Program-made: the position numbers and the translations under genes | Shown: positions 2,896-64,000 of the stretch, one piece after another | How positions within the stretch are numbered: the first letter of the stretch is position 1 | Layout: the number at the start of each line of letters is the position of its first letter | NCBI GenBank assembly: GCA_040954595.2 | Contig: CM082588.2 | Span: 7,858,844-7,922,843, forward strand | DNA from: Balanoglossus misakiensis | Taxonomy: Eukaryota; Animalia; Hemichordata | Length of the DNA stretch: 64,000 nt | Direction of reading: 5' to 3' | The notes under the pieces: model-generated | Seen by the model: the letters and a program-made list of their open reading frames with translations, nothing else | Databases searched by the model: none | What the model was told of the DNA's origin: nothing

Positions 2896-5800
2896 ATGGC
2901 GACCGGTGGTGCATTTTTAACTACAGCCGAGAAGGTGAATCACGCTAGACTTTGTCAACTACTTATCGACGGTGGAACTAAAGCGGTGAGATGTGTATTT
3001 GACAACAAGATTCCACCTAATCTGCTTGCGAAAACTCTTAACAAGCATAAGGCATCGTTAGTGAGACTACGAATGTCGTATAAAGGACCTAATCCGGGTC
3101 CAAAGGTTATCAGTGATGGTCAGTGGGATCTGTTATACCCAACCCAACCCAAGCCTGTTAAGTCTGAACATTTCGACATTACATTGCTCACAGTTTTATT
3201 GCGGAATATCTGTGGCCTTCGAGTGACACAATCCTCCCCTGGTGTTGAAGCTGATGTGGCCCGAATAAGAGAGTTCAGGAATAGACTTCAACACATGACT
3301 GGCACAGCTGTCCCTGAGAGCGAATTTCAATCTTTCTGGGATGACATTAGTAAAGTATTGGTACGTCTTGGCGCTAAGCAGGGAGATATCGATCAGTTGA
3401 AGACTGCGAGTATGGACCTTGCTGAGACAGACAAATACGAACAAACTTTAAAGCACTGGGAAGAATCTGACATGGTGCTGGAAAAGTTGGTAAAGCGTAT
3501 GAAAGAGAAAATTGGCAATCAAACTCGTCAGCTTGGTCAGATATCAGAGACACAGAGTGACCATAGCAGTACTTTGGCTGATATCGAACAGAACCAACGG
3601 GAGAACCAACAAGAAACGACTCACCATCTTGGTCAGATATCAGAGACACAGAGTGACCATAGCAGTACTTTGGCTGATATCGAACAGAACCAACGGGAGA
3701 ACCAACATGAAACGACTCAACATCTTGGTAAGATATCAGAGACACAGAGTGGCCATAGCAGTACTTTGTCTGATATAGAACAGAACCAACGGGAGAACCA
3801 ACATGAAACGACTCAACATCTTGGTCAGATATCAGAGACACAGAGTGGCCATAGCAGTACTTTGGCTGATATCGAACAGAACCAACAAGAAACGACTCAA
3901 CATCTTGGTCAGATATCAGAGACACAGACTGGCCATAGCAGTACTTTGGCTGATATGCAACAGAATCAACGGGAGAACCAACAAGAAACGACTCAACATC
4001 TTGGTCAAATATCAGAGACACTGGTTGACATCAAAGAAGGCCTCAAGACTTCACATACCAGTGAGTCAAGAACATGTGTTCCAGGTAATATTTAAGATGG
4101 AGAAGTGGAATTCATTTCTTTGGCTGAAATCTACAATCATGGTTGCTTAGTTTGAAAAAAAGATTCTGTTGTATGGTACACCACCGTTAAAAAATAACTT
4201 TTTCTATAAATTCTCTCGTTTATCTCAAGATGCTTCCTGTGCTTGGTGCAACTGTAAGAGTGATAATCTCAAGAAGTTTATACGCTGTTGTGCAGTGATG
4301 TATTGTGGGAAAGACTGTCAGAAACAACACTGGATGAAAGGTCACAGAGAAGAATGCAAAGGTACAATTGATCATTTTCTGAACTACACATGACCCCACG
4401 AGATGTCACGTAGCTAAGCAATTTATATGGGAGGACATTCCCCTGGCACAGGGCAAACAATTAACACATGTTCCACCATATTCAATGGCACAAACAATTT
4501 CCTTTTCTGTTAAACTCTGCACCTATTCTAATTTCTTAGCTACCAACCCGTTGCTATGGTAATTAACCAAGTCTCAGGAGATTTCTCATTGAGCTGGAAA
4601 TCATCATTGTTAAAGTCTGAACCTATATTCCAGTTACATACCAAGCTAGATAGTATGAAAATATTCACAAAAACCTTTTAGTACATGTAAGAACTTATAA
4701 ATAAGATACTGAAAATTTCCATGTTTCACGCATAATTTTTGTATTCTCATGTGCAGAGCTGTCTGTCAAAAAGCTGGGGGTAATCACGACATGACCCTGC
4801 CTATGTGGAACACAATATGTGGTTCATATACTACGGTAGTTGTGGGTCATAAATCCTCTAGTATACCATATGTAACCCCTGACTATATTATACTTAGTAC
4901 AATGATGTTTTACAGCTTGTGAAAATGGTAAACTAAATCTGCAATACAAAAGTCATACTATCAATATTATATAAATTGTTTTTCTACAGATAATTCTGCA
5001 GGGTTTGAGTGGCTGAAAGACCATCTCAAAAAATTGTACAGCCATGACTTTGACAAGTTCCAACCGTTGCCATGGAATGAAAACTTCTCACTCCATTTAT
5101 CTGATGTCTATACCCGACTGAAGATGTTAGAGGTTGATGAAAGGGGTAAGATCATTAAGGACAATGAAGAAAATGACACTGTAGTTCATGAAAGTGCAAT
5201 ATTTGAAGCAGATCGAAATGGAGTGAGAACACGTAGAATAAGAATTGAAGGACCTCCAGCTATTGGCAAGTCAATGTTTTCACGAAAGCTGGCCTACAAC
5301 TGGGCTTGTGGAAAATTAGAGCAATTTAAATTAGTCTTTCTGTTGGAAATGAGATATATGAGTAAAGAATCAATCATAGAAACCATATTTGATCAATTAC
5401 TTCCTGATGATGCAGAAATTTCCAGAGATGAGCTTGACAAGGTTCTGAAAAGGAATGCAGATTCTGTGCTGTTCCTCTGTGATGGTTTGGATGAAATGTG
5501 TAAGGATTTCAAGGAAAGTTCTGATATTAGTCGGATTATTGCAAAGAAATTATTGCCAAGATGTACAGTAGCTATCACAACCAGGCCCCATGAATGTGAC
5601 ACAGAGTTGAAAAACTGTGATTCACATTATCACATACAGGGCTTCACAAAGAGAGATTGTAGGGAATATATCATGAAGTACTTCAAGCATGAGTGTGAGA
5701 CTGGTGAGAATTTGATCAAAAATTTGGAACAAAACCTCCAGTTTAAATGGTTGGATGATTTCCTTAGTAATCCCTTACATGTTTCATTTCTTTGTGTACT

Positions 5801-7838
5801 GTGGGAGGATCATCAAGATGGTGACCATTTCCCAACTAGAGTGACAGAGTTGTATTTTGAAGTATTGAAGTGTATTTTGAAGAGGTATTGTTCCAAGACT
5901 GGAGTCTGTCTTGATGAACAAGGAGAAGTACCCGTTGATATCATGGCTGATGTAAATAAACTGGCTGCCATTGCTTATAATTATCTGAAACAGGGAAAAA
6001 TACTCATAAATGAGGTAGATGTGATGCCATCATGGCTCTTGTCACTAGGGTTACTTGTGCGTGATTGCGGTGTATCTCGCACAAAACCAAAGAAAGTTTG
6101 TTTCTTTTGTCACAAAAGTTGGCTGGAATATTTTGCTGCTTTACATATTGCTGAATGTGTGAAGGATACTGCTTCCTTTGATGAGTTTCAATTTCTATCT
6201 GACGACATTTACCACAATTTCCAAGTCTTGGTATTTCTGACTGGGACTCTGAAGGAGAAAGCTGGTCCAGTATTTAAGGAAATTGGGATGGAGACGTGCA
6301 AGTCTGCAGGTGATACTCACTTAACCGACAAAATGAACCGCTATATAGATTTCTTACATGAAAGTGTCAATTATGAAGCATTTTTGAAATTCATAGAACC
6401 CATCCTTTATCAATTGAAGTGTGTCGCTTGTAGTCGTTCATTTTATTATAGCGCAAACAGATCTGTGTTTGTCAATTCTATATGTATCTCTTTACCATTA
6501 CCATATTTTCTAAGTGACGATTTGAATTTTCGTACAATGTATTATGAAAATAGTTACTTGATGATAATCATTTATATACTGAAGTATATACACTCACGTG
6601 AAAGTAGACCCAAATTTAATAAAAATCTCCAGTTAGATATAAACAAAATGCAATCATCAGAGATTTTCTATTTGGCAGAGGCACTGGAGAAGAATCTTAT
6701 TTCTCTTGAATGCCTTGTGTTGTATGTGACTTCATCCAGTGGCAAGGATCTGCTTCAGTTGGCAAAAGCTTTCAGAGAAACCAAAGCGGTACAAAACATT
6801 TATATCGTTGTAGGGATTGATATGGAAATTGTTGTTGACAGCACTCCCAAATGTAAGCAAGACACCTCAAATAAAGAAACAGATTTGACATCACGCACTT
6901 TAGGAAACCTTATTGAAAATGCTGTGAAAAATAAGCATATTGATTGTTTGTCATTGCATACATTTGACCGGTCTGACCATCAACGGGAGAATATTGAAAA
7001 CATTGTTCCATATAAGTCATTGAAACAGACCAGGCACTTTCATAATATTGTGGAAACCGAAACAGGTGTAAATAGCGTATTACTGAAAGTTGCTGATATG
7101 CTTGAACACTGTCAATCTACCAAGGTTTGTCACGTGGTACTTGATGATAGTGTCAGATATTATGCCATTGAGGGCAGTACTGCAAGAGCTTTGTCAAAAG
7201 CTGTTCAAAATATCAGCAAAACAATTAATTCTCTTAGCTTGCTTGTCACATCAGAATTTTTAGATATACCGGAATATTTTGATGTTCAATCTGAATTTTT
7301 GCCTATATGTCATGTTGTGAATGAGATTTTACACATTTTGAAGTCTAACACCACATTAGAGGATCTTAAGTTATTTATAGAGAATGAAAATGTTGATGCT
7401 GTATTGAAGTTTATTCAATGTAATAAGTATGTCAAGTCACTGTCCTTTGCTCTGTATCAGTCCAGAATGAGCATAGACCATTTATGTTCAGCTCTCTGTG
7501 CTGCTTTGAGTTCCAATACAACTCTGGAAAGCTTTGCGCTGCATTTGTGTGATGAGTCAGATGCAATGTATAGTAACACTGAACATTCCACTGAGCATAA
7601 GTATATAAGTAAATTCATTTTACCAACACATAGATTATTGTGTGATGGAAAAACTGCATTGAAGACGATTTCATTTACTTTTCAATCATCAAGTCCAGAA
7701 CGCAGGGATGATATTGTCAATGTCATGACCGAGCATTTTAAAGGAAATGTTTCAGGGTCATACCAATACACTGTGAAGAAGCACATCTGGTATCACATTT
7801 ATATTCACATTCTTAAAGTATCGATCAGTGGACCCTAG
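2896..7838 (+). CDS. HEPN-coiled coil-MYND-NACHT-LRR-like NLR, copy 1; join(2896..4084,4230..4361,4990..7838), 1389 aa
   Basis: Splice sites CCAG|gtaata, caag|AT, AAAG|gtacaa and tacag|AT are all phase 1 and give one open frame. HEPN_DZIP3-like motifs FDITLLTVLLRNICGL and RIREFRNRLQH; MYND CAWC..YCGKDCQKQHW..H..EC; Walker A GPPAIGKS; Walker B LFLCDGLDE; ITTRP; NPL; FCHKSWLEYFAA; LRR-like SNTTLEDLKL and SNTTLESFAL. Confidence 0.85.
3532..3999 (+). repeat. Coding minisatellite, 96/84-bp units (32/28 aa), 5 units (L-L-L-S-L)
   Basis: Unit LGQISETQSDHSSTLADIEQN(QREN)QQETTQH read directly from the sequence. Confidence 0.95.
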
Positions 7839-10934: not shown

Positions 10935-13900
10935 ATGGCGACCGGTGGTGCATTTTTAACTACAGCCGAGAAGGTGAATCATGCTAGACTTTGTCGACTA
11001 CTTATCGACGGTGGATCAAAAGCGGTGAGATGTGTATTTGACAGCAAGATTCCACCTAATGTGCTTGCAAACACCCTTAACAACCATAAGGCGTCGTTAG
11101 TAAGAATACGAATGTCGTATAAAGGACCTAATCCAGGTCAAAAGGTTATCAGTGATGGTCAGTGGGATCTGTTATACCCAACCCCACACAACCTTGTCAA
11201 GTCTGAACATTTCGACATTACATTGCTCATAGTTTTATTACGGAATATCTGTGGCCTTCGACATCCAAGAGATAGAGTATGGACACATCCCTCCCCTGGT
11301 GATCTCCGTGTTGAAGCTGATGTGGCCCGAATAAGAGAGTTCAGGAATAGACTTCAACACATGACGGGCACAGCTGTCCCTGACAGCGAATTTCAATCTT
11401 TCTGGGATGACATTAGTAAAGTATTGGTACGTCTTGGCGCTAAGCAGGGAGATATCGATCAGTTGAAGACTGCGAGTATGGACCTTGCTGAGACAGACAA
11501 ATACGAACAAACTTTAAAGCACTGGGAAGAATCCGACATGGTGCTGGAAAAGTTCCTACATCGTATGGAAGAGAAAATTGGCGATCAAACTCGTCAGCTT
11601 GGTCAGATATCAGAGACACAGAGTGATCATAGCAGTACTTTGGCTGATATCGAACATAACCAACAAGAAACGACTCAACATCTTGGTCAGATATCAGAGA
11701 CACAGAGTGGCCATAGCAGTACTTTGGCTGATATCGAACATAACCAACAAGAAACGACTCAACATCTTGGTCAGATATCAGAGACACAGAGTGACCATAG
11801 CAGTACTTTGGCTGATATCGAACAGAACCAACAAGAAACGACTCAACATCTTGGTCAGATATCAGAGACACAGAGCGGCCATAGCAGTACTTTGGCTGAT
11901 ATCGAACAGAACCAACGGGAGAACCAACAAGAAACGACTCAACATCTTGGTCAGATATCAGAGACACAGAGTGACCATAGCAGTACTTTGGCTGATATCG
12001 AACAGAACCAACGGGAGAACCAACAAGAAACGACTCAACATCTTGGTCAGATATCAGAGACACAGAGCGGCCATAGCAGTACTTTGGCTGATATCGAACA
12101 GAACCAACGGGAGAACCAACAAGAAACGACTCAACATCTTGGTCAGATATCAGAGACACAGAGCGGCCATAGCAGTACTTTGGCTGATATCGAACAGAAC
12201 CAACGGGAGAACCAACAAGAAACGACTCAACATCTTGGTCAGATATCAGAGACACAGAGCGGCCATAGCAGTACTTTGGCTGATATCGAACAGAACCAAC
12301 GGGAGAACCAACAAGAAACGACTCAACATCTTGGTCAGATATCAGAGACACAGAGCGGCCATAGCAGTACTTTGGCTGATATCGAACAGAACCAACAAGA
12401 AACGACTCAACATCTTGGTCAGATATCAGAGACACAGAGTGACCATAGCAGTACTTTGGCTGATATCGAACAGAACCAACAAGAAGCGACTCAACATCTT
12501 GGTCAGATATCAGAGACACTGGTTGACATTAAAGAAGGCCTCAAGACTTCACATACCAGTGAGTCAAGAACGTGTGTTCCAGGTAATAATTAAGATGGAG
12601 AAGTGATATTCATTTCTATGGCTGAAATCTACAATCATACATGCTTAGTTTGAAAAAAAGATTCTGTTGTACGTACACCACCATTAAAATAACTTTTTCT
12701 ATAAATTCTCTCCTTTATCTCAAGATGCTTCCTGTGCTTGGTGCAACTGTACGAGTGATAATCTCAAGAAGTTTATACGCTGTTGTGCAGTGATGTATTG
12801 TGGGAAAGACTGTCAGGAACAACACTGGATGAAAGGTCACAGAGAAGAATGCAAAGGTACAATTGATCATTTTCTGAACTTCACGTGACCCCACGAGATT
12901 TCACGTAGCTAAGCAATTTATATGGGAGGACATTCCCCTGGCACAGGGCAAACAATTAACACTTGTCCCACCATATTCAATGGCACAAACAATTTCCTTT
13001 TTTGTTAAACTCTGCACCTATTCTAATTTCTTAGCTACCAACCCGTTGCTATAGTAATTAACCAAGTCTCAGGAGATTTCTCAATGAGCTGGAAATCATC
13101 ATTGTTAAAGTCTGAACCTATATTCTAGTTACATACCAAGCTAGATAGTATGAAAATATTCACAAACACCTTTTAGTACATGTAAGAACTTATAAATAAG
13201 ATACTGAAAATTTCCATGTTTCACGCATAATGTTTGTATTCTCATGTGCAGAGCTGTCTGTCAAAAAGCTGGGGGTAATCACGACATGACCCTGCCTATG
13301 TGGAACACAATATGTGGTTCATATACTACGGTAGTTGTGGCTCATAATACTTCTAGTATAGCATATGTAACCCCTGACTATATTATACTTAGTACAATGA
13401 TGTTTTACAGCTTGTGAAAATAGTAAAACAAACAGCAATTATCTGCAATACAAAAGTCATACTATCAATATTATAATTGTTTTTCTACAGATACTTCTGC
13501 AGGGTTTGAGTGGCTTAAAGACTATCTCAAAAAATTGTACAGCCATGACTTTGACAAGTTCCAACCTCTGCCATGGAATGAAAACTTCTCCCTTCATTTA
13601 TCTGATGTGTATACCCGACTGAAGATGGTAGAGGTTGATGAAAGGGGTAAGATCAATAAGGACAATAAAGCAAAGAACACTGTAGTTCATGAGAGGGCAA
13701 TATTTGAAGCAGATAGAAGAGGAGTGAGACCACGTAGAATAAGAATTGAAGGACCTCCAGCTATTGGCAAGTCAATGTTTTCTAGAAAGCTGGCCTACAA
13801 CTGGGCTTGTGGCAAATTAGAACAATTTAAATTAGTCTTTCTCTTGGAAATGAGATATATGAGTAAAGAATCAATCATAGAAACCATATTTGATCAATTA

Positions 13901-16345
13901 CTTCCTGATGATGCGGAAATTTCCAGAGATGAGCTTGACAAGGTTCTGAAAAGGAATGCAGATTCTGTGCTGTTCCTCTGTGATGGTTTGGATGAAATGT
14001 GTAAGGATTTCAAGGAAAGTTCCGATATTAGTCGGATTATTGCAAAGAAATTATTGCCAAGATGTACAGTGGCTATCACAACCAGGCCCCATGAATGTGA
14101 CACACAGCTGAAAAACTGTGATTCACATTATCACATACAGGGCTTCACATGGAGTGATTGTTGGGAATATATCAGGAAGTACTTCAAGCATGAGTCTGAG
14201 ACTGGTGAGAATTTGATCGAAAATTTAGAACAAAACCTCCAGTTTGCATGGTTGGATGATTTCCTTAGTAATCCCTTACATGTTTCATTTCTTTGTGTAT
14301 TGTGGGAGGATCATCAAGATGGTGACCATTTCCCAACTAGAGTGACAGAGTTGTATTTTGAAGTATTGCAGTGTATTTTGAAGAGGTATTGTTGCAAGAC
14401 TGGAGTCAGTCTTGATGAACAAGGAGAAGTACCCGTTGATATCATGGCTGATGTAAATAAACTGGCTGCCATTGCTTATAATTATCTGAAACAGAGAAAA
14501 ATACTCATAAATGAGGTAGATGTGATGCCAACATGGCTCTTGTCACTAGGGTTACTTGTGCGTGATTGCGGTGTATCTCGCACAAAACCAAAGAAAGTTT
14601 GTTTCTTCTGTCACAAAACTTGGCTGGAATATTTTGCTGCTTTACATATTGCTGAATGTGTGAAGGATACTGCTTCCTTTGATGAGTTTCAATTTCTATC
14701 TGACGACATTGAACACAATTTCCCAGTCTTTGTATTTCTGACTGGGACTCTGAAGGAGAAAGCTGGTCCAGTATTTAAGGAAGTTGGGATGGAGACGTGC
14801 AAGTCTGCAGGTGATGTTGGCCTTGAGTTTAGAATGTACTACTATATAGATTTCTTACATGAAAGTGTCAATTATCATGCATTTTTGAAATTCATAGAAC
14901 CCATCCTTTATCAATTAACGCGTTTCAATTGTAATACTTTATTTTATCTTAGAGAAAGACATTCTATGGTTGTCAATTCTTTGTCTTCACCATCACCATC
15001 ACCATATATTCTAAGTGACGATGTGAATTTTCATACATTGTATTATGGAGATAGTTACTTGATGATAATCATTGATATGCTGAAGTATAAACACTCACAT
15101 GAAAGTAGACCCAAATTTAATAAAAATCTCCAGTTAGATATAAACGAAATGCAATCATCAGAGATTTCCTATTTAGTAGAGGCACTGGAGAAGAATCTCA
15201 TTTCTCTTGAATGGCTTGTGTTGATTGTGACTCTATCCAGTGGCAAGGATCTGCTTCAGTTGGCAAAAGCTATCAGAGAAACCAATGCGGTACAAAACAT
15301 TCATATCGTTGTATTAAGTGATGATAGGGATAATGTTATTGACAGCACTCCCAATGAGAAATGTAAGCAAGGCACCTCAACTAAAGACACAGATTTGACA
15401 TCACGCACTTTAAGAAACCTTATCGAAAATGCTGTGAAAAATGAGCATATTGATTGTTTGTCATTGCATACATTTGACTGGTCTGACCATCAACGGGAGA
15501 ATATTGATAACATTGTTCCATATAAGTCATTGAAACAGGCCAGGCACTTTCATAATTTTGTGGAAACCAGAACAGGTGTAAATAGCGTATTATTGAAAGT
15601 TGCTGATATGCTTGAACACTGTCAATCTACCAAGGTTTGTCATTTTGTACTTTCTGATAGTGTCAGATATTCTGCCATTGAGGGCTGTACTGCAAGAGCT
15701 TTGTTAAAAGCTGTTCAAAATATCAGCAAAACAATTAATTCTCTTAGCTTGCTTGTCACATCAAAACCTGTATCTAGTATACTTGATATAGTTCTATCTG
15801 GATCATTGCCAATATATCATGTTGTGAATGAGATTGTAAACATTTTGATATCTAACACCACATTAGAGGATCTTAAGTTATTTATAGAGAATGAAAATGT
15901 TGATGCTGTATCGAAGTTTATTCAATGTAATAAGTATGTCAAGTCACTGTCCTTTGCTCTGTATCAGCCCAGATTGAGCACAGACCATTTATGTTCAGCT
16001 CTCTGTGCTGCTTTGAGTTCCAATACAACTCTGGAAAGCTTTGCGCTGGAGTTTTGTTATGAGTTTCATAGAGTTCATAGTAACCCTGAACTTTCCACTG
16101 AGCATAAGTATATTAGTCAATTGATTTTACCAACACATAGTCGATTGTGTGGTGGAAAAACTGCATTGAAGACAATTTCATTTACTTTTCCATCATTTAG
16201 TCCGGAACGCAGGGATGATATTGTCAATGTCATGACCGAGTATTTTAAAGGAAATGTTTCAGGGTCATACCAATACACTGTGAAGAGGACGGTCGTGTAT
16301 GACGTGTATATTCACATTCTTAAAGTATCGATCAGTGGACCCTAG
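10935..16345 (+). CDS. HEPN-coiled coil-MYND-NACHT-LRR-like NLR, copy 2; join(10935..12582,12725..12856,13491..16345), 1544 aa
   Basis: Same splice sites, phases and motifs as copy 1; exon lengths sum to a multiple of 3. Confidence 0.85.
11598..12497 (+). repeat. Coding minisatellite, 10 units (S-S-S-L-L-L-L-L-S-S)
   Basis: 300 aa longer than repeat-free copy 3, which equals 5x32 + 5x28. Confidence 0.95.
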
Positions 16346-22868: not shown

Positions 22869-25800
22869 CTAGGGTTCACTGATCAATATTTTAAGAATGT
22901 GAATACACGTTTGACGACTGTAGCTAACTAGCCTGTTCACAGTGTATTGGTATGACCCTGAAACATTTCCTTTAAAATACTCGGTCATGACATTGACAAT
23001 ATCAACCCTGCCTTCTGGACTTGATGATGGAAATGTTAATGAAATACTCTTCAATGGGGTTATTCCACCACACAATAACCTATGTATTGGTAAAATCACT
23101 TGACTAATATACCTGTGCTCAGTGGAAAATTGAGGGTTTCTATAAGTTGTATTTGACGCACCACATAAATGCAGCGCAAAGCTTTCCAGAGTCGTATTGG
23201 AACTCAAAGCAGCACAGAGAGCTGAACATAAAAGGTATATTCTCATTCTGGTCTGATACAGAGCAAAGGAAAGTGACTTGACATACCTATTACATTGAAT
23301 AAACTTCGATACAGCATCAACATTGTCATTCTCTATAAATAACTTAAGATCATCTAATGTGGTGTTAGACATCAAAATAGGTAAAATCTCATTCACAACA
23401 TGAGATATTGGCAATGATCCAGGTGGAACTACATAAGGTAAATTTACATATTCTGATGTGACAATCAATCTAAGAGATTTTATTGTTTTGCTGATATTTT
23501 GAATGGCTTTTAACAAAGCTCTTGCAGTACTGCCCTCAATGGCAGAATATCTGACCCTATCAAAAAGTACCACATGACAAACCTTGGTAGATTGACAGTG
23601 TTCAAGCATATCAGCAACTTTCAATAATGCACTATTTAAACCTGTTTCGGTTTCCACAAAATTATGAAAGTGCCTGGCCTGTTTCAATGACTTATATGGA
23701 ACAATGTTATCAATATTCTCCCATTGATGGTCAGACACGTGTACTGTATGCAATGACAAACAATCAATATGCTTATTTTTCACAGCATTATCGATAAGGT
23801 TTCCTAAAGTGTGTGATGTCAAATCTGTGTCTTTAGTTGAGGTGCCTTGCTTACATTTCTCATTGGGAGTGCTGTCAATAACATTATCCCTATCATCTAC
23901 AATGATATGAATGTTTTGTACCGCTTTGGTTTCTCTGATAGCTTTTGCCAACTGAAGCAGATTCTTGCCACTGGACGGAGTCACATTCAATGCAAGGCAT
24001 TCAAGACAAATAAGATTCTTCTCCAGTGCCTCTACCAAATAGGAAATCGATGATGATTGCATGTTGATATCTATCTGAAGATATTTATCAAATTTGGGTC
24101 TACTTTCACCTGAGTGTATACCGGTATACTGGTACTTCAGCATATCAATGATTATCATAAAGCCAATGTCTGAACAGTGCAATAAATTGCATGTACGAAA
24201 GTTCATATCGTCCCCTACAATATATTGTGATGGTGAAGACAAAGAATTGATAACTATAGGGGATACTGCTTTATGGTAAGGCTGAAAGGTATGATAACAT
24301 TTGAAAAACCTTATTTGATCAAGAATGGGTTCAAAAAATGTGAAAAATGCTTGATAACTAATAATTTCACGTAAGAAATATATAGCTTTGTTTATTCTTG
24401 TGTCAATGTAATCATTATCTGCAAACTTGCACATCGCCATCCCAATCCCCTTAAATACTGGACCAGCTTTCTCCTTCAGAGTGCCAATCAGAAATACAAA
24501 GACTTGGTCATTGTTGCCATCATAATTGTTACTATATAGAAATTGAAACTCATCAAAGGAAGCAGTATCCTTCACACATTCAGCAATATGTAAAGCAGCA
24601 AAATATTCCAGCCAAGTTTTGTGACAGAAGAAACAAACTTTCTTTGGTTTTGTGCGAGATACACCGCAATTACGCACAAGTAACCCTAGTGACAAGAGCC
24701 ATGTAGGCATCACATCTACCTCATTTATGAGTATTTTTCCCAGTTTCAGATAATTATAAGCAATGGCAGCCAGTTTATTTACACCAGCCATGATATCAAC
24801 GGGTACTTCTCCCTGTTCATCAAGACTGACTCCAGTCTTGGAACAATACCTCTTCAAAATACACTGCAATACTTCAAAATACAACTCTGTCACTCTAGTT
24901 GGGAAATGGTCACCATCTTGATGATCCTCCCACAATACACAGAGAAATGAAACATGTAAGGGATTACTAAGGAAATCATCCAACCATGCAAACTGGAGGT
25001 TTTGTTCTAAATTTGTGATCAAATTCTCACCAGTCTCAGACTCATGCTTGAAGTACTTCCTGATATATTCCCTACTATCACTCTTTGTGAAGCCCTGTAT
25101 GTGATAATGTGAATCACAGTTTTTCAGCTGTGTGTCACATTCATGGGGCCTGGTTGTGATAGCTACTGTACATCTTGGCAATAATTTCTTTGCAATAATC
25201 CGACTAATATCGGAACTTTCCTTGAAATCCTTACACATTTCATCCAAACCATCACAGAGGAACAGCACAGAATCTGCATTCCTTTTCAGAACCTTGTCAA
25301 GCTCATCTCTGGAAATTTCTGCATCATCAGGAAGTAATTGATCAAATATGGTTTCTATGATTGATTCTTGACTCATATATCTCATTTCCAACAGAAAGAC
25401 TAATTTAAATTGCTCTAATTTTCCACAAGCCCAGTTGTAGGCCAGCTTTCTACTAAACATTGACTTGCCAATAGCTGGAGGTCCTTCAATTCTTATTCTA
25501 CGTGGTCTCACTCCTTTTCTATCTGCTTCAAATATTGCACTCTCATGAACAACAGTGTCATTTTCTTCATTGTCATCAATGATCTTACCCCTTTCATCAA
25601 CCTCTACCATCTTCAGTCGGGTATACACATCAGATAAATGGAGTGAGAAGTTTTCATTCCATGGCAACGGTTGGAACTTGTCAAAGTCATGGCTGTACAA
25701 TCCTTTGAGATGGTCTTTAAGCCACTCAAACCCTGCAGAAGTATCTGTAAGAAAAAAACAATGAAATATTGATAGTATGACTTTTGTATTGCAGATAGTT

Positions 25801-27837
25801 GCCGTTTATTTTACTATTTTCACAAGCTGTAAAACATCATTGTACTAAGTATAATATAGTCAGGGGTTACATATGCTATACTAGAAGCATTATGACCCAC
25901 AACTACCGTAGTATATGAACCACATATTGTGTTCCACATAGGCAGGCTCATGTCGTGATTACCCCCAGCTTTTTGACAACAGCTCTGCACATGAGAATAC
26001 AAACATTATGTGTGAAACATGGAAATTTTCAGTATCTTATTTATAAGTTCTAACATGAACTAAAAGGTGTTTGTGAATATTTTCATACTATCTAGCTTGC
26101 TATGTAACTAGAATATAGGTTCAGACTTTAACAATGATGATTTCCAGCTCATTGAGAAATCTCCTGAGATTTGGTTAATTACCATAGCAACAGGTTGGTA
26201 GCTAAGAAATTAGAATAAGTGAATGCAGAGTTTAACAAAAAAGGAAAACGTTTTTGCCATTCAAAATGGTGGGACATGTGTTAATTGTTTGCCCTGTGCC
26301 AGGGGAATGTCCTCCCATATAAATTGCTTAGCTACGTGAAATCTCGTGGGGTCATGTGGAGTTCAGAAAATGATCAATTGTACCTTTGCATTCTTCTCTG
26401 TGACCTTTCATCCAGTGTTGTTTCTGGCAATCTTTCCCACAATACATCACTGCACAACAGCGTGTACACTTCTTGAGATTATCACTCTTACAGTTGCACC
26501 AAGCACAGGAAGCATCTTGAAATAAAGGAGAGAGTTTATAGAAAAAGTTATTTATAATGGTGGTGTACAACAGAATCTTTTTCAAACTAAGCAACCATGA
26601 TGTCGCCATTAAAGGGACATTAAAGTCTCTTTCTCGATGTCCTTTTTCCATTAATTAAGTTTGACACAAGACACTGTTTTTGTTATTCTTCATGTGGATA
26701 TATAGTGAATCAACATTCGACCATATTCATTTTGGCGAGATTTGCTGCTCTCATATCATACAAGTGGGATGGAAGTTGTGTGCGGTTTCCTGATTATTCC
26801 CATTCTCATATATTGCAAAAATAAGTACAAAACTTGCTTATGATGGTCTATGCAATGTATGATTATGAGGTAAGACTTGAGATGTGAAATAAGCTAACCC
26901 AGATTGGCCCTGGGTCAGCCCAAGGCAGCTGACCAAGTTGGAATATGAGTTCTTATCTGCACATATAATTTATGAGACCATGAAGGAAAAATTAAGTTTG
27001 ACCAAAAATTATACAAATTATAAAAAAACCTACAAGATTGTAGATTTCAGCCATAGAAATAGATTCAACTTGTCAATCTTAATTATTACCTGGAACACAT
27101 GTTCTTGACTCACTGGTATGTGAAGTCTTGAGGCCTTCTTTGATGTCAACCAGTGTCTCTGATATCTGACCAAGCTGACGAGTTTGATCGCCAATTTTCT
27201 CTTCCATACGCTGTAGGAACTTTTCCAGCACCATGTCAGATTCTTCCCAGTGCTTTAAAGTTTGTTCGTATTTGTCTGTCTCAGCAAGGTCCATACTCGC
27301 AGTCTTCAACTGATTGATATCTCCCTGCTTAGCGCCAAGACGTACCAATACTTTACTAATGTCATCCCAGAAAGATTGAAATTCACTGTCAGGGACAGCT
27401 GTGCCCGTCATGTGTTGAAGTCTATTCCTGAACTCTCTTATTCGGGCCACATCAGCTTCAACACTGAGATCACCAGGGGAGGGATGTGTCCATACTCTAT
27501 CTCTTGGATGTCGAAGGCCACAGATATTCCGTAATAAAACTGTGAGCAATGTAATGTCGAAAAGTTCAGACTTGACAAGGTTGGGTGGGGTTGGGTATAA
27601 CAGATCCCACTGACCATCACTGATAACCTTTGGACCTGGATTAGGTCCTTTATACGACATTCGTAGTTTCTCTAACGACACCTTATGCTTGTTAAGAGTA
27701 TTTGCAAGCACATTAGGTGAAATCTTGCTGTCAAATACACATCTCACCGCTTTAGATCCACCGTCGATAAGTAGTCGACAAAGTCTAGCATGATTCACCT
27801 TCTCGGCTGTAGTTAAAAATGCACCACCGGTCGCCAT
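22869..27837 (-). CDS. HEPN-MYND-NACHT-LRR-like NLR, copy 3 (inverted, no coiled-coil repeat units); complement join(27837..27090,26515..26384,25744..22869), 1251 aa
   Basis: Same splice sites and phases on the minus strand. MYND has the full ligand set (KKCTRC). HEPN RNRLQH and Walker A/B are intact. Confidence 0.85.
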
Positions 27838-39099: not shown

Positions 39100-39230
39100 T
39101 ATGTAAATGAGGCCATCAACGCTCATCTATTTTCAGCCCCTGACGTCATCGGTGTTCCCCCCTGCATGCCCTGATGTGATTGGCTATTGATGACGTGTTC
39201 TCTGTGTTGCTAAATTTAGTGCTATAAACA
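39100..39230 (+). promoter_or_regulatory. Putative promoter of the AAC4-like gene (CRE TGACGTCA 39141-39148, inverted CCAAT ~39179, TATA-like ~39223)
   Basis: Motifs are in canonical order just before a CpG-richer first exon; duplicated at ~57843-57970. Confidence 0.35.
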
Positions 39231-41477: not shown

Positions 41478-42629
41478 GATGATATCACCATTGCGGACAA
41501 CCATATATTTATTTTTGTTTATATGTACTTGCATACTAGTATTTTGCGCCAATGTCAGTGGCCTTCACATTTGAAATCGTAGCCCCCAAACATCGATTTG
41601 TTGGACTTTTCTTCCCATATGAAATAAAGTTACGAGAAACTTCATCAGATTGTATCATTCTAACCCCTTAACTTTAGCACTCAAAAAATATCAAGTGAGT
41701 TTCACATATACATATACATGGAACTGTAAGGCCAGTCAAAATAGAAATGACGACTGTTTTCACAAGCTTCTGTTAGTTGCGGTTCAGACTGCGTATTTGC
41801 GATTTGCACACAGAGTTGGAACTTTCGCCTGGTTTTTAGCAAATGTGAACATTATAGTGTATCACCAACACTGTTCGAGTTAATCTTGGAAGTGGAGATC
41901 TTCATATATCTGCGCCCAAGTGCTTCCAGAACTGGAGTCAAGTTGTGTTTTGTGATATCGTACAAAGATGGCGACTGGTGGTGCATTTTAACTACAGCCG
42001 AGAAGGTGAATCACGCTAGACTTTGTCGACTACTTATCGACGGCGGATCTAAAGCGGTGAGATGTGTATTTGACAGCAAGATTCCACCTAATGTGCTTGC
42101 AAACACCCTTAACAAGCATAAGGCGTCGTTAGTGAGACTACGAATGTCGTATAAAGGACCTAAACCGGGTCCAAAGGTTATCAGTGATGGTCAGTGGGAT
42201 TTGTTATACCCAACCCAACCCAACCTTGTCAAGTCTGAACTTTTCGACATTACATTGCTCACAGTTTTATTACGGAATATCTGTGGCCTTCGACATCCAA
42301 GAGATAGAGTATGGACACATCCTTCCCCTGGTGATCTCCATGTTGAAGCTGATGTGGCCCGAATAAGAGAATTCAGGAATAGACTTCAACACATGACGGG
42401 CACAGCTGTCCCTGAGAGCGAATTTCAATCTTTCTGGGATGACATTAGTAAAGTATTAGTACGTCTTGGCGCTAAGCAGGGAGATATCGATCAGTTGAAG
42501 ACTGCGAGTATGGACCTTGCCGAGACAGACAAATACAAACAAACTTTAAAGCACTGGGAAGAATCTGACATGGTGCTGGAAAAGGTCCTACAGCGTATGG
42601 AAGAGAAAATTGGCGATCAAACTCGTGCG

Positions 42630-43361
42630 CTTGGTCAGATATCAGAGACACAGAGTGACCATAGCAGTACTTTGGCTGATATCGAACAGAACCAACGGGA
42701 GAACCAACAAGAAACGACTCAACATCTTGGTCAGATATCAGAGACACAGAGTGACCATAGCAGTACTTTGGCTGATATCGAACAGAACCAACGGAAGAAC
42801 CAACAAGAAACGACTCAACATCTTGGTCAGATATCAGAGACACAGAGTGACCATAGCAGTACTTTGGCTGATATCGAACAGAACCAACAAGAAACAACTC
42901 AACATCTTGGTCAGATATCAGAGACACAGAGTGACCATAGCAGTACTTTGGCTGATATCGAACAGAACCAACAAGAAACAACTCAACATCTTGGTCAGAT
43001 ATCAGAGATACAGAGTGGCCATAGCAGTACTTTGGCTGATATCGAACAGAACCAACGGGAGAACCAACAAGAAACGACTCAACATCTTGGTCAGATATCA
43101 GAGACACAGAGTGACCATAGCAGTACTTTGGCTGATATCGAACAGAACCAACGGAAGAACCAACAAGAAACGACTCAACATCTTGGTCAGATATCAGAGA
43201 CACAGAGTGACCATAGCAGTACTTTGGCTGATATCGAACAGAACCAACAAGAAACGACTCAACATCTTGGTCAGATATCAGAAACACAGAGTGACCATAG
43301 CAGTACTTTGGCTGATATCGAACAGAACCAACGGGAGAACCAACAAGAAACGATTCAACAT
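42630..43361 (+). repeat. Coding minisatellite, 8 units (L-L-S-S-L-L-S-L), terminal LGQISET heptad missing
   Basis: Read from the translation; length equals 5x32 + 3x28 aa. Confidence 0.95.
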
Positions 43362-43807
43362 CTGGTTGACATCAAAGAAGGCCTCAAGACTTCACATACC
43401 AGTGAGTCAAGAACATGTGTTCCAGGTAATAATTAAGATTGACAAGTGGAATTCAATTCTATGGCTGAAATCGACGACATTATAGCTTTTTTTATAATTT
43501 GTATAATTTTTGGTCAAACTTAATTTTTCCTTCATGGTCTCATAAATTATATGTGCAGATAAGAACTCATATTCCAATTTGGTCAGCTGCCTTGGGCTGA
43601 CCCAGGGCCAAACTGGGTTAGCTTTTTTCATCTCAAGTCTTACCTCATAATCATACATTGCATAGACCATCATACGCAAGTTTTATACTTATTTTTGCAA
43701 TATATGAGAATGGGAATAATCAGGAAATCAAGATAATTACAATCCCACTTTTCTGGGGAGTCCAAAATCATGTTAGGTGGTGACATGTTGGTTGCCAGTT
43801 ATCTTAA

Positions 43808-44091: not shown

Positions 44092-47000
44092 TTAATGGTG
44101 ACATCATCGTTGCTTAGTTTGAAAAAAAGATTCTGTTGTACACCACCATTAAAAATAACTTTTCTATAAATTCTCTCCTTTATTTCAAGATGCTTCCTGT
44201 GCTTGGTGCAACTGTAAGAGTGATAATCTCAAGAAGTTTATACGCTGTTGTGCAGTGATGTATTGTGGGAAAGACTGTCAGAAACAACACTGGATGAAAG
44301 GTCACAGAGAAGAATGCAAAGGTACAATTGATCATTTTCTGAACTCCACATGACCCCACGAGATTTCACGTAGCTAAGCAATTTATATGGGAGGACATTC
44401 CCCTGGCACAGGGCAAACAATTAACACGTCCCACCATATTCAATGGCACAAACAATTTCCTCTTTTGTTAAATTCTGCACCTATTCTAATTTCTTAGCTA
44501 CCAACCCGTTGCTATAGTAATTAACAAAGTCTCAGGAGATTTCTCAATGAGCTGGAAATCATCATTGTTAAAGTCTGAACCTATATTCTAGTTACATACC
44601 AAGCTAGATAGTATGAAAATATTCACAAACACCTTTTAGTACATGTAAGAACTTATAAATAAGATACTGAAAATTTCCATGTTTCGCGCATAATTTTTGT
44701 ATTCTCATGTGCAGAGCTGTCTGTCAAAAAGCTGGGGGTAATCACGACATGACCCTGCCGCCTATGTGGAACACAATATGTGGTTCATATACCGGGTACT
44801 ACAGTAGTTGTGGGTCACAAGACTTCTAGTATACCATATGTAACCCCTGACTATATTATACCTAGTACAATGATGTTTTACTGCTTGTGAAAATAGTAAA
44901 CTAAATCTGCAATACAAAAGTCATACTATCAATATTATATAAATTGTTTTTCTACAGATAATTCTGCAGGGTTTGAGTGGCTGAAAGACCATCTCAAAAA
45001 ATTGTACAGCCATGACTTTGACAAGTTCCAACCTCTTCCATGGAATGAAAACTTCTCACTCCATTTATCTGATGTCTATACCCGACTGAAGATGGTAGAG
45101 GTTGATGAAAGGGGTAAGATCATTGAGGACAATGAAGAAAATGACACTGTAGTTCATGAAAGTGCAATATTTGAAGCAGATCGAAATGGAGTGAGACCAC
45201 GTAGAATAAGAATTGAAGGACCTCCAGCTATTGGCAAGTCAATGTTTTCTAGAAAGCTGGCCTACAACTGGGCTTGTGGCAAATTAGAGCAATTTAAATT
45301 AGTCTTTCTGTTGGAAATGAGATATATGAGTCAAGAATCAATTATAGAAACCATATTTGATCAATTACTTCCTGATGATGCAGAAATTTCCAGAGATGAG
45401 CTTGATAAGGTCCTGAAAAGGAATGCAGATTCTGTGCTGTTCCTCTGTGATGGTTTGGATGAAATGTGTAAGGATTTCAAGGAAAGTTCTGATATTAGTC
45501 GGATTATTGCAAAGAAATCATTGCCAAGATGTACAGTAGCTATCACAACCAGGCCCCATGAATGTGACACACAGTTGAAAAACTGTGATTCACATTATCA
45601 CATACAGGGCTTCACAAAGAGTGATTGTAGGGAATATATCAGGAAGTACTTCAAGCATGAGTCTGAGACTGGTGAGAATTTGATCAAAAATTTGGAACAA
45701 AACCTCCAGTTTAAATGGTTGGATGATTTCCTTAGTAATCCCTTACATGTTTCATTTCTTTGTGTACTGTGGGAGGATCATCAAGATGGTGACCATTTCC
45801 CAACTAGAGTGACAGAGTTGTATTTTGAAGTATTGAAGTGTATTTTGAAGAGGTATTGTTCCAAGACTGGAGTCTGTCTTGATGAACAAGGAGAAGTACC
45901 CGTTGATATCATGGCTGATGTAAATAAACTGACTGCCATTGCTTATAATTATCTGAAACAGGGCAAAATACTCATAAATGAGGTAGATGTGATGCCAACA
46001 TGGCTCTTGTCACTAGGGTTACTTGTGCGTGATTGCGGTGTATCTCGCACAAAACCAAAGAAAGTTTGTTTCTTTTGTCACAAAAGTTGGCTGGAATATT
46101 TTGCTGCTTTACATATTGCTGAATGTGTGAAGGATACTGCTTCCTTTGATGAGTTTCAATTTCTATCTGACGACATTTACCACAATTTCCAAGTCTTGGT
46201 ATTTCTGACTGGCACTCTGAAGGAGAAAGCTGGTCCAGTATTTAAGGAAGTTGGGATGGAGACGTGCAAGTCTGTAGGTGATGTTGGCCTTGAGTTTAGA
46301 ATGGACAGCTATATAGCTTTCTTACATGAAAGTGTCAATTATCGTGCATTTTTCAAATTCATAGAACCCATCCTTTATCAATTAACGCGTTTCATTTGTA
46401 ATACTTTATTTTATCTTAGAGAAAGACCTTCTATGGTTGTCAATTCTTTGTCTTCACCATCACCATCACCATATATTCTACATGTAAGTGACGATGTGAA
46501 TTTTCATACATTGTATTATGGAGATAGTTACTTGATGATAATCATTGATATGCTGAAGTATAAACACTCACATGAAAGTAGACCCAAATTTAATAAAAAT
46601 CTCCAGTTAGATATAAACGAAATGCAATCATCAGAGATTTTCTATTTGGCAGAGGCACTGGAGAAGAATCTCATTTCTCTTGAATGGCTTGTGTTGATTG
46701 TGACTCTATCCAGTGGCAAGGATCTGCTTCAGTTGGCAAAAGCTATCAGAGAAACCAATGCGGTACAAAACATTCATATCGTTGTAAGTGATGATAGGGA
46801 TAATGTTGTTGACAGCACTCCCAATGAAAAATGTAAGCAAGGCACCTCAAATAAAGAAACAGATTTGACATCAAGCACTTTAAGAAACCTTATCGAAAAT
46901 GCTGTGAAAAATAAGCATATTGATTGTTTGTCATTGAATACAGTACACCGATCTGACCATCAACGGGAGCATATTGATAACATTGTTCCCTATAATTCAT

Positions 47001-48213
47001 TGAAACAGGCCAGGCACTTTCATAATTTTGTGGAAATCGAAACAGGTTTAAATAGCGTATTATTGAAAGTTGCTGATATGCTTGAACACTGTCAATCTAC
47101 CAAGATTGGTCATTTTGTTCTTTTTGACGATTTCACATGTTCTGCCATTGAGACCGGGACTGCAAGAGCTTTGTTCAAAGCTGTTCAAAATATCAGCAAA
47201 ACAATAAATTCTCTTAGCTTGCTTGTCACATCAAAAGTTTTAGTTACATGTACACCGGAAGATTGTGTTGTTTCATCTGGATTTTTGCCTATATCTGATG
47301 TCGTGAATGAGATTTTGCACATTTTGATGTCTAACACCACATTAGAGGATCTTAAGTTATTTATAGAGAATGACAATGTTGATGCTGTATCGAAGTTTAT
47401 TCAATGTAATAAGTATGTCAAGTCACTGTCATGTGCTCTGTATCAGTCCAGAAGGAGCATAGACCATTTATGTTTAGCTCTCTGTGCTGCTTTGAGTTCC
47501 AATACAACTCTGGAAAGCTTTGCGCTGCAGTTATGTAAGTATAGTATGCATGAATATAGAAACCCTGAACTTTCCACTGAGCATAAGTATATTAGTCAAT
47601 TGATTTTACCAACACATAGGTTATTGTGTGATGGAAAAACTGCATTGAAGACAATTTCATTTACTTTTCCATCATCAAGTACAGAACGCAGTGATTATAT
47701 TGTCAATGTCATGACCGAGCATTTTAAAGGAAATGTTTCAGGGTCATACCAATACACTGTGAAGAGGACGATCAAGTTTAAGATTGATCGTTATATTCAC
47801 ATTCTGAAAGTATCCATCAGTGAACCCTAGAGAATGCTGAATGCCACATTTGCATAAGATGCAATCTGCTATATAGGGGAAACTCCATGAAAAATTGTAA
47901 ACTTTAATTTTTTACAGATATAAAATATACCAGGTAACAGACTTTACTATTAGATATCAATGCTTGCACAGTTAGACAAACTGTCAAGGGATTTTCAACA
48001 TACTGTATCCAGATGGAAATTTAATCAATTTACTAAGGACACACAAAGTGAACAAATAAACAGAATTTGATTTGTTCACTTTATAACATTACTAGAAGCA
48101 AATGTCTACCTCGAAGTGTTTTTCTTGACCCAAAATATGACAAATTCAAAAGGCTTATGAGTTCCACAGATTTACGGGTATTATTGAATATTTGCAAGTA
48201 TGTTTATAAAGCT

Positions 48214-60724: not shown

Positions 60725-63700
60725 ATGGCGACTGGTGGTGCCTTTATAACCACACCCGAGAAGGTGAATCACGCTAGACTTTGTCGACTACTTATCGACG
60801 GCGGATCTAAAGCGGTGAGATGTATATTTGACAAGAGAATTCTAATCTTACACTTGCGGACACAGAATTCTAATCTTACACTTGCGGACACACTGAAGAA
60901 CCATAAAGTTTCGTTACAGAGACTTCGTCCAAATGTTATCAGTGATGGTCAGTGGGATCTGTTATACCCAACCCCACCCAACCTTGTCAAGTCTGAACAT
61001 TTCGACATTACATTGCTCATAGTTTTACTACGGAATATCTGTGGCCTTCGACATCCAAGAGATAGAGTATGGACACATCCCTCCCCTGGTGATCTCCGTG
61101 TTGAAGCTGATGTGACCCGAATAAGAGAGTTCAGGAATAGACTTCAACACATGACGGGCACAGCTGTCCCTGACAGTGAATTTCAATCTTTCTGGGATGA
61201 CATTAGTAAAGTACTGGTACGTCTTGGCGCTAAGCAGGGAGATATCGATCAGTTGAAGACAGCGAGTATGGACCCTGCAGAGACAGACAAATACGAACAT
61301 ACTTTAAAGGACTGGGAAGAATCCGACATGGTGCTGGAAAAGTTCCTACAGCGTATGGAAGAGAAAATTGGTGATCAAACTCGTCAGCTTGGTCAGATAT
61401 CAGAGACACAGAGTGGCCATAGCAGTACTTTGGCTGATATCGAACAGAACCAACGGGAGAACCAACAAGAAACGACTCAACATCTTGGTCAGATATCAGA
61501 GACACAGAGTGACCATAGCAGTACTTTGGCTGATATCGAACAGAACCAACGGGAGAACCAACAAGAAACGACTCAACATCTTGGTCAGATATCAGAGACA
61601 CAGAGTGACCATAGCAGTACTTTGGCTGATATCGAACAGAACCAACGGGAGAACCAACAAGAAACGACTCAACATCTTGGTCAGATATCAGAGACACAGA
61701 GTGACCATAGCAGTACTTTGGCTGATATCGAACAGAACCAACGAGAGAACCAACAAGAAACGACTCAACATCTTGGTCAGATATCAGAGACACAGAGTGA
61801 CCATAGCAGTACTTTGGCTGATATCGAACAGAACCAACGGGAGAACCAACAAGAAACGACTCAACATCTTGGTCAGATATCAGAGACACAGAGTGACCAT
61901 AGCAGTACTTTGGCTGATATCGAACAGAACCAACGGGAGAACCAACAAGAAACAACTCAACATCTTGGTCAGATATCAGAGACACAGAGTGACCATAGCA
62001 GTACTTTGGCTGATATCGAACAGAACCAACAAGAAACAACTCAACATCTTGGTCAGATATCAGAGACACAGAGTGACCATAGCAGTACTTTGGCTGATAT
62101 CGAACAGAACCAACGGGAGAACCAACAAGAAACGACTCAACATCTTGGTCAGATATCAGAGACACAGAGTGACCATAGCAGTACTTTGGCTGATATCGAA
62201 CAGAACCAACAAGAAGCGACTCAACATCTTGGTCAGATATCAGAGACACTGGTTGACATTAAAGAAGGCCTCAAGACTTCACATACCAGTGAGTCAAGAA
62301 CGTGTGTTCCAGGTAATAATTAAGATGAAGAAGTGATATTCATTTCTATGGCTGAAATCTACAATCATATTTGCTTAGTTTGAAAAAAAGATTCTGCTGT
62401 ATGTACACCACCATTAAAAATAACTTTTTCTATAAATTCTCTCCTTTATCTCAAGATGCTTCCTGTGCTTGGTGCAACTGTAAGAGTGATAATCTCAAGA
62501 AGTTTATACGCTGTTGTGCAGTGATGTATTGTGGGAAAGACTGCCAGGAACAACACTGGAGGAAAGGTCACAGAGAAGAATGCAAAGGTACAATTGATCC
62601 TTTTCTGAACTCCACATGACCCCACGAGATTTCACGTAGCTAAGCAATTTATATGGGAGGACATTCCCCTGGCACAGGGCAAACAAGTAACACATGTCCT
62701 ACCATATTCAATGGCACAAACAATTTCCTTTTTTGTTAAACTCTGCACCTATTCTAATTTCTGAGCTACCAACACGTTGCTATAGTAATCAACCAAGTGT
62801 CAGGAGATTTCTAAATGAGCAGGAAATCATCATTGTTAAAGTCTGAACCTATATTCTAGTTACATAGCAAGCTAGATAGTATGAAAATATTCACAAACAC
62901 CTTTTAGTACATGTAAGAACTTATAAATAAGATACTGAAAATTTCCATGTTTCACGCATAATGTTTGTATTCTCATGTGCTGAGCTGTCTGTCAAAAAGC
63001 TGGGGGTAATCACGACATGACCCTGCCTATATGGAACACAATATGTGGTTCATATACATGTAGTTGTTGGTCACAATACATCTAGTACACCATTTGAAAC
63101 CCCTGACTATATTATACTTAGGTACAATGATGTTTTACAGCTTGTGAAAATAGTAAACTAAACAGCAACTATCTGCAATACAAAAGTCATACTATCAATA
63201 TTATATTGTTTTTTTCTTACAGATACTTCTGCAGGGTTTGAGTGGCTTAAAGACTATCTCAAAGAATTGTACAGCCATGACTTTGACAAGTTCCAACCTC
63301 TGCCATGGAATGAAAACTTCTCACTCCATTTATCTGATGTCTATACCCGACTGAAGATGGGAGAGGTTAATGAAAGGGGTAAGATCATTAAGGACAATGA
63401 AGAAAATGACACTGTAGTTCATGAGAGTGCAATATTTGAAGCAGATCGAAATGGAGTGAGACCACGTAGAATAAGAATTGAAGGACCTCCAGCTATTGGC
63501 AAGTCAATGTTTAGTAGAAAGCTGGCCTACAACTGGGCTTGTGGAAAATTAGAGCAATTTAAATTAGTCTTTCTGTTGGAAATGAGATATATGAGTAAAG
63601 AATCAATCATAGAAACCATATTTGATCAATTACTTCCTGATGATGCAGAAATGTCCAGAGATGAGCTTGACAAGGTTCTGAAAAGGAATGCAGATTCTGT

Positions 63701-64000
63701 GCTGTTCCTCTGTGATGGTTTGGATGAAATGTGTAAGGATTTCAAGGAAAGTTCTGATATAAGTCGGATTATTGCAAAGAAATTATTGCCAAGATGTACA
63801 GTAGCTATCACAACCAGGCCCCATGAATGTGACACACAGCTGAAAAACTGTGATTCACATTATCACATAGAGGGCTTCACATGGAGTGATTGTTGGGAAT
63901 ATATCAGGAAGTACTTCAAGCATGAGTCTCAGACATGTGTGAATATGATCAAAAATTTAGAACGAAACCTCCAGTTTAAATGGTTGGATGATTTCCTTAG
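60725..64000 (+). CDS. HEPN-coiled coil-MYND-NACHT NLR, copy 5, partial; join(60725..62312,62456..62587,63223..>64000)
   Basis: Same splice sites. The NACHT exon with GPPAIGKS and LCDGLDE appears open to the window edge. Confidence 0.85.
61388..62227 (+). repeat. Coding minisatellite, 9 units (L-L-L-L-L-L-S-L-S)
   Basis: 280 aa equals 7x32 + 2x28. Confidence 0.95.

Follow-up and report, generated by a model that had tools for sequence, protein, structure and literature searches.

What does an animal NLR do when a putative RNase sits at its head in place of a death-fold domain, and how did it come by such a head? The question is raised by a stretch of the genome of the hemichordate Balanoglossus misakiensis (contig CM082588.2, positions 7,858,844 to 7,922,843), 64,000 nt of AT-rich eukaryotic DNA that we call the window and to which the copy count is confined. 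It holds five copies of one three-exon NLR-type gene, four on the forward strand and one (copy 3) inverted, whose exons are predicted to join into a HEPN-coil-MYND-NACHT-LRR protein (LRR, leucine-rich repeat). To the first part of the question, the answer to which we give slightly better than even chances is that the products are sensor-activated RNases, in which sensing by the LRR would lead to NACHT oligomerization, HEPN pairing and RNA cleavage. To the second, the answer is a likely exchange of effector heads between NLR clades. NLRs that join HEPN_DZIP3 to NACHT are already known, as are tandem arrays of them and the RNase hypothesis; the novelty seems to lie in the likely replacement of DED by HEPN at the head, in the MYND cassette exon and in a stalk that appears to vary in length while staying in register. 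The view that the system is categorically new was rejected, since both the kind of protein and the RNase hypothesis have been published.

The first-pass annotation of this DNA had described three open reading frames per unit, spliced in phase 1. The splice signals agree with it: all introns are GT..AG and phase 1 in all five copies, exon 2 measures 132 bp in each, the exon lengths modulo 3 are 1, 0 and 2 in every unit, and the copy 1 junctions it had proposed (4084/4230 and 4361/4990) are GT..AG. The joins are predicted from sequence, and one copy is frameshifted. The joined frame is open in copy 1 (2896-7838, forward, 1389 aa), copy 2 (10935-16345, forward, 1544 aa) and copy 3 (27837-22869, reverse, 1251 aa), and likewise in as much of copy 5 as the window contains (from 60725, forward), this copy being cut off just after the NACHT core. 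Copy 4 (41968-47830, forward) is frameshifted after its ATG, the remaining frame being open. Accordingly, the earlier picture of five paralogs each making one protein fits copies 1, 2, 3 and what is visible of copy 5, but not copy 4. A clean five-copy tandem array was likewise rejected: there are five units, but they are four direct and one inverted, one is frameshifted and one is truncated by the end of the window. The exon edges are fixed, while intron 1 can be as short as 142 bp or as long as 764 bp; read-through into this intron meets a stop after 2 codons, and no AATAAA occurs in it in any of the five copies. The first Met of exon 3 is at residue 45, and homology to relatives already starts near the first residues of the exon. 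Between the units no other NLR-related coding piece was found, and the Ptychodera protein model P0022 has the same start and a HEPN-coil-NACHT layout.

In Pfam searches the first exons of all five copies match HEPN_DZIP3 (PF18738) at 115-147 bits, against a curated cut-off of 27. HEPN, NACHT and MYND, all named in the first-pass annotation, are matched above cut-off, HEPN and NACHT in five of five copies and MYND in both of the exons scanned. The R-x4-H motif (copy 1, 3277-3294) is identical in the five copies, as had been claimed. Alone it is a weak indicator, with 155 occurrences in the six frames of the window, and it is the profile match that carries the weight. A HEPN alignment was built from four of the window copies and 71 from the set of 94 HEPN relatives; all 75 rows have the Arg of the motif, 73 its Asn and 74 its His, and the window motif aligns to the Arg and His columns. 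Spacing differs among the aligned rows, R-x4-H being found in 19 and R-x5-H in 55. Compared by sequence with solved structures, the HEPN domain gave no match (best E 0.14), and metagenome contigs encoded no relative of exon 1.

Two further elements lie between HEPN and NACHT. A short coil, common to the Ptychodera relatives, precedes a stalk of repeats that number 5, 10, 0, 8 and 9 in copies 1 to 5; the description of a length-variable stalk is thus apt for four copies, with 5-10 repeats, but not for copy 3, which has none. Each repeat is 28 or 32 residues long with a hydrophobic period of 3.53-3.55 and so corresponds to four heptads, in the longer form with a four-residue insert, as would suit a coiled coil changing length in register. 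The core positions alternate between Leu/Ile and Gln/His/Thr, and such layers would make for a weak coil. Matches of the stalk to XhlA, ZMYND8_CC and NCD2 fell below the Pfam cut-off and were taken as generic coiled coil, and long antisense or alternative frames across the stalk were dismissed as side effects of the repeat. The second element is the MYND finger of exon 2. zf-MYND (PF01753) scored 37.6 and 38 bits, against a cut-off of 22.7, in the two second exons scanned; the remaining three are 91-95% identical to that of copy 3, and the first Atlas match for the exon is MYND (0.91). A word-based protein search returned no candidate for this exon, which is weak evidence. zf-MYND is listed in none of the 94 HEPN relatives, and the MYND pattern occurs in none of 115 fetched proteins.

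The third exon carries NACHT (PF05729; 96-102 bits in all five copies), with Walker A and Walker B identical in the five, as the first-pass annotation had it. Its further statement that the proteins lack a death-fold domain also holds for the 12 exon frames scanned, in which Pfam gave no match to DED, death, CARD or PYD. The same frames gave no match to an LRR family, and the C-terminal 507 residues matched no Pfam family and none of 1.84 billion representatives. The LRR label is supported instead by a predicted fold. The last 597 residues of copy 3, modelled from a 13-row alignment (pLDDT 74, pTM 0.77), are predicted to form the end of a winged helix, a helical domain and a beta-alpha solenoid. 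Foldseek placed NLRP14 at the top (E 6e-9), with NLRC4, NLRP3, NOD2 and ribonuclease inhibitor also found, and by VIA the best match was NLRP3 (Z 16.6, rmsd 6.9, 430 residues aligned). The model thus supports an NLRP-like LRR solenoid by fold, not by sequence profile, and the earlier LRR assignment stands in that form.

The domains differ in constraint. Pooled pairwise ratios of non-synonymous to synonymous substitution (dN/dS; Nei-Gojobori, codon bootstrap) are 0.15 (0.03-0.39) for the NACHT core, 0.44 (0.28-0.74) for HEPN and, on four copies, 1.32 (1.04-1.65) for the C-terminus, in keeping with the claim that the C-terminus diversifies. In the modelled region, variable sites are concentrated after the LRR strands (Fisher p 0.001): of the positions in the six residues that follow a strand, 46 of 83 vary, against 45 of 123 within strands, 39 of 121 in the remaining loops and 44 of 161 in helices; the NACHT core has 3 in 138. 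One half of the C-terminal region is 96.5% identical between copies 2 and 4 and the other half 88.2%, a sign of gene conversion. In these four copies, which bear such signs, the variable sites are distributed on the model as they would be on a ligand-binding face exposed to diversifying pressure.

The two ends of the protein point to different ancestors. For exon 3, the 15 best relatives are hemichordate (Ptychodera, Glandiceps, Saccoglossus); 12 of these 15 list DED, and HEPN is listed in none of the 21 exon 3 matches. For exon 1, the best relatives are two other Ptychodera proteins, followed by cnidarian-named ones among others, and 76 of the 94 HEPN relatives list NACHT. Two NACHT trees were built, one from the five copies and the 23 of 115 proteins that passed the filter, the other with 15 rows. 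The window NACHTs are sister to the DED proteins P0001 and P0002 (91/98 in the 15-row tree, 99 SH-aLRT in the larger) and, in the 15-row tree, fall within a branch with 97/98 support that holds DED proteins, with P0022 outside. Forcing them to group with P0022, the nearest HEPN relative, costs 26 log units and is rejected (p-AU 0.0099). Because the HEPN head and the NACHT have different nearest relatives, the simplest reading is that a HEPN-coil exon was grafted onto a DED-type NLR, and the direction would be from DED to HEPN because DED heads are in the majority. From these trees and relatives a DED-to-HEPN effector head swap appears likely. Within the same NACHT clade, the hemichordate NLRs P0003 and P0004 list PF02338, which we take to be the OTU protease, beside DED, and so have another enzyme head.

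How far is such a protein already described? More than 50 pearl oyster NACHT proteins with an N-terminal DZIP3 HEPN are reported in tandem arrays, with R-x4-6-H in 194 of 202 pearl oyster HEPN proteins and an RNase role proposed (PMC9646362). In nine cnidarians HEPN_DZIP3-NACHT is the commonest NACHT fusion, LRRs aside, with 17-83 copies in anthozoans (PMC8260672). Fusion of the DZIP3 HEPN to NACHT and LRR had been noted in PMC3710099, where RNA degradation in death or defense and a likeness to bacterial HEPN-STAND proteins are proposed for the related CXorf38 family. For Ptychodera, 3 (5) HEPN-NACHT and 25 (27) DED-NACHT genes are given, and for Saccoglossus 2 (2) and 0 (1), respectively (PMC13012124; preprint 10.1101/2025.07.21.665930). 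The first-pass annotation was therefore right that DZIP3-like HEPN fused to NACHT had been noted in invertebrates (PMC9646362; PMC8260672; PMC3710099). Its proposal of an undescribed five-part family survives for the MYND finger and the variable stalk, but not for the HEPN_DZIP3-NACHT core (PMC9646362; PMC8260672). MYND with NACHT or an NLR, or the present layout, was not found described in the literature surveyed, which was mainly open access, and the pearl oyster domain tables may list MYND forms; the eight supplements of PMC8260672 contain no MYND. Nor did that literature yield anything on exon shuffling in invertebrate NLRs that describes this layout.

NLRs that combine a DZIP3/hRUL138-like HEPN (PF18738) with NACHT occur in pearl oyster, cnidarians, lancelets and hemichordates (PMC9646362; PMC8260672; PMC13012124; PMC3710099). 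The predicted proteins of the window share with them an N-terminal HEPN_DZIP3 with R-x4-H, a central NACHT, a C-terminal repeat sensor, tandem clusters with copy variation and a proposed RNase role in defense. Unlike them, they have a MYND exon and a coiled-coil stalk, the latter with 0-10 repeats, interposed between HEPN and NACHT, and their NACHT-LRR is of the DED clade. Ptychodera flava P0022 and P0023 come closest at the head, with the same start, 53-54% identity over the HEPN domain and a similar short coil, but they have neither MYND nor a repeat stalk, and the NACHT of P0022 is from a distant clade. The hemichordate DED-NACHT NLRs P0001 and P0002 come closest in the remainder, with 53-55% identity over NACHT and a homologous winged helix and LRR-like tail. 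DED-NACHT NLRs, including OTU-DED forms such as P0003, carry DED where the window copies carry HEPN-coil-MYND; with a DED head, NLRs of the P0001 and P0002 type would signal through adaptors. Vertebrate NLRP3, NLRC4 and NOD2 have a NACHT and an LRR solenoid of the fold predicted here, but use PYD or CARD heads with caspase or kinase partners, and their identity to the model is 10-14%. Further afield, bacterial NACHT effectors include predicted HEPN RNases (10.1101/2022.07.19.500537), a point to which PMC13581612 adds nothing. Human SAMD9 contains a latent N-terminal tRNase that viruses activate, and it has bacterial Avs analogues (PMC10246899; PMC12680541). The proposed likeness to SAMD9/SAMD9L, Avs9 and the bacterial RNase-effector NACHTs, namely a large sensor with a latent N-terminal RNase activated by infection, is one of analogy and not of membership: SAMD9 and Avs9 use an AlbA_2 nuclease, of which Pfam found no match in the first exons, whereas the window proteins have HEPN and an LRR sensor.

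HEPN RNases act as dimers, and NACHT proteins oligomerize. A mechanism can be proposed on this basis. The HEPN-coil first exon of one NLR clade would have replaced the DED head of another, with the phase 1-1 MYND exon in between. The fast-evolving LRR would bind a pathogen cue, upon which NACHT would exchange nucleotide and oligomerize. The weak coiled-coil stalk may zip up only once NACHT oligomerization crowds the heads, so that HEPN would be off at rest; two HEPN domains would then form a composite R-x4-H site and cut RNA. The cleavage would halt translation or kill the cell without a death-fold adaptor. MYND would be an optional protein-binding insert that is decaying or being repurposed in most copies.

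Several observations weigh against this RNase mechanism or the head swap that it includes. Splicing, expression, dimerization and RNase activity are all putative, and no experiments on any DZIP3-type HEPN-NACHT were found in the mainly open-access literature. Of the five, copies 2 and 3 alone are complete and show no evident lesion in HEPN or in the frame. Copy 1, which the first-pass annotation had chosen as its example, has the motif where it was placed but is without 9 residues just upstream, among them a Pro, a Trp and a Pro kept in 71, 73 and 72 of the 75 rows, and its HEPN may therefore be impaired. The integrated MYND finger is borne out by the profile matches, but its third zinc-binding Cys is Phe in copies 1, 2, 4 and 5, all eight ligands being present only in copy 3; a spare Cys nearby might substitute. 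With MYND degenerate in four of the five copies and copy 3 without a stalk repeat, neither looks essential. If the coiled coil were stable, it could pair HEPN in advance, and another off-switch would be needed. As to selection, the MYND dN/dS of 0.45 (0.05-1.51) has an interval compatible with neutrality, and HD1 and the winged helix, at 0.79 (0.34-2.27) on four copies, are not clearly constrained. The C-terminal value is barely above 1, comes from four non-independent and probably gene-converted copies, and may be inflated by alignment near indels. As to the swap, the larger NACHT tree has only two HEPN-NACHT rows, both long branches, P0023 having been dropped at the filter. Moreover, set against the published count of 3 (5) such Ptychodera genes, two were found, so that an unsampled HEPN-headed member of the NACHT clade may exist.

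These difficulties can be read in other ways. The proteins may be sensor NLRs in which HEPN (and MYND) is an RNA-binding or decoy module or a scaffold, the death signal passing through a partner such as a DED NLR and cleavage being minor or absent. The lesion in copy 1 suits such a role, its NACHT and LRR staying in frame despite the loss of conserved HEPN residues, as does the weaker constraint on HEPN than on NACHT (0.44 vs 0.15). Helpers would not be wanting, to judge from the DED-NACHT genes counted in Ptychodera (PMC13012124), and the domain is called RNA-binding in a coral genome paper (PMC10236652). Yet Arg and His are kept in all five copies and in 75 and 74 of the 75 rows, as expected of an enzyme, and the variation is in the LRR and not in HEPN or MYND, unlike in an integrated decoy; we regard this alternative as unlikely. 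Somewhat less likely again is that the five-part protein is not the main product, either because the MYND exon is usually skipped or because exon 1 makes a short HEPN-coil protein while the NACHT exon joins another upstream exon. Being 132 bp long and phase 1-1, exon 2 could indeed be skipped in frame; its donor (GTACAA) is non-optimal, MYND is mostly degenerate and its pattern was absent from the fetched relatives, and HEPN genes without NACHT are common in the pearl oyster arrays (PMC9646362). Against this, all five copies retain the acceptor and the donor of exon 2, and the exon has no frameshift or stop. Intron 1 lacks a polyadenylation signal, the stretches between the units gave no other NLR-related coding piece, and skipping of MYND would still yield a HEPN-NLR.

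It may also be that the cluster expanded recently by segmental duplication, for the most part neutrally, and is now decaying; drift, slippage or assembly error would then account for the repeat numbers and for the changes at the C-terminus. The copy 4 frameshift, the copy 1 deletion and the loss of the MYND Cys are what decay would leave, the duplications are large, with non-coding DNA included, and the C-terminal dN/dS is near 1. Neutral decay is nevertheless difficult to reconcile with the dN/dS of the NACHT core. Four exon-3 frames of about 950 codons are open across 27 gap runs, whereas the gaps in introns are of 1, 2, 4, 5 and 7 bases. The stalk units are always 28 or 32 residues, and the variation lies preferentially after the LRR strands. 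We consider this reading improbable, the least favored of the three alternatives to the sensor-activated RNase.

The copies themselves illustrate the range of forms. Copy 1 (forward) has HEPN_DZIP3, the short coil and 5 stalk repeats (about 3532-4020) in exon 1 (2896..4084), the 132-bp phase 1-1 MYND exon with the third Cys changed to Phe (4230..4361) and, in exon 3 (4990..7838), NACHT (Walker A 5250-5273, Walker B 5469-5495), helical and winged-helix domains, the LRR-like solenoid and the stop; the fold of this exon was assigned by homology to the copy 3 model. Copy 2 (forward) has an intact HEPN (motif 11343-11360) and 10 repeats in exon 1 (10935..12582), MYND with the same Cys-to-Phe change (12725..12856) and NACHT through the LRR-like C-terminus (13491..16345). 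In copy 3 (reverse), exon 1 (27090..27837) has an intact HEPN (motif 27429-27412) and the short coil with no stalk repeat, exon 2 (26384..26515) a MYND with all eight zinc ligands, and exon 3 (22869..25744) NACHT through the LRR-like C-terminus, of which 22872-24662 is the modelled part. Exon 1 of copy 4 (forward, 41968..43425) has an ATG followed by a T run one base short, the HEPN frame and 8 repeats being otherwise open; MYND, again with Phe (44190..44321), and an open NACHT through the LRR-like C-terminus (44958..47830) follow. The missing T after the ATG (41968) leads to an early stop, and copy 4 is either a pseudogene or an assembly error. Copy 5 (forward) has the most divergent HEPN (motif 61133-61150) and 9 repeats in exon 1 (60725..62312), MYND with Phe (62456..62587) and exon 3 (63223..64000), which runs off the end of the window beyond the NACHT core. 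In its HEPN a 28-bp tandem duplication at 60836-60892 keeps the frame with a net gain of 9 residues, and 9 residues are missing slightly further on.

The units sit inside larger duplications, mostly 90-95% identical with non-coding DNA included. One segmental duplication (30493-41197 and 48958-59931, 93-95% identity) brings spacer genes along with copies 4 and 5. Among these is a small spliced gene in two near-identical copies (39385-40830 and 58126-59580, both forward), each about 1.1 kb upstream of copies 4 and 5; four of its frames were scanned with Pfam and gave no match, and it resembles what we take to be an AAC4-like family. A frame at 34456-34737 (reverse) in the same duplication has a DUF4211 match below cut-off, which suggests another spliced gene there. 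At 36849-37643 a 398-bp unit is present in two perfect copies, which may reflect a duplication in the very recent past or an artefact of assembly. A zf-RVT match of 31.9 bits (28700-29200, reverse), near a 30-base T run (28596-28625) and upstream of the inverted copy 3, is probably a retroelement remnant. A 184-185-bp tandem repeat in 2-5 copies lies downstream of NLR stop codons (237-581, 8146-8617, 21543-22437), and the stretch at the window start (237-581) suggests a further NLR copy just to the left. An Rfam search gave no match.

In corals and oysters, NLRs with a HEPN head rank among the commonest types of NLR, and no RNA-cutting test of them was found in the mainly open-access literature. 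The present cluster brings suitable test cases together in a small space: the short copy 3 lacks repeats but has both HEPN and MYND intact, the longest stalk is that of copy 2, and copy 1 has a natural HEPN lesion. If RNA is indeed cut, this would be an animal NLR executing with its own enzyme, as bacterial NACHT/Avs proteins do. More tentatively, and with the balance of probability against it, we suggest that a deuterostome NLR clade switched from death-fold signaling to direct execution by exon shuffling (HEPN for DED), with MYND as an optional bait or adaptor and with stalk steps of 28 or 32 residues setting the oligomerization needed to pair the heads. If so, the spread from 0 to 10 repeats among the copies would give an animal RNase resistosome a natural series of activation thresholds. 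The head swap, if true, would mean that effectors have been exchanged by exons between NLR clades, and suggests an NLR chassis that accepts new heads.

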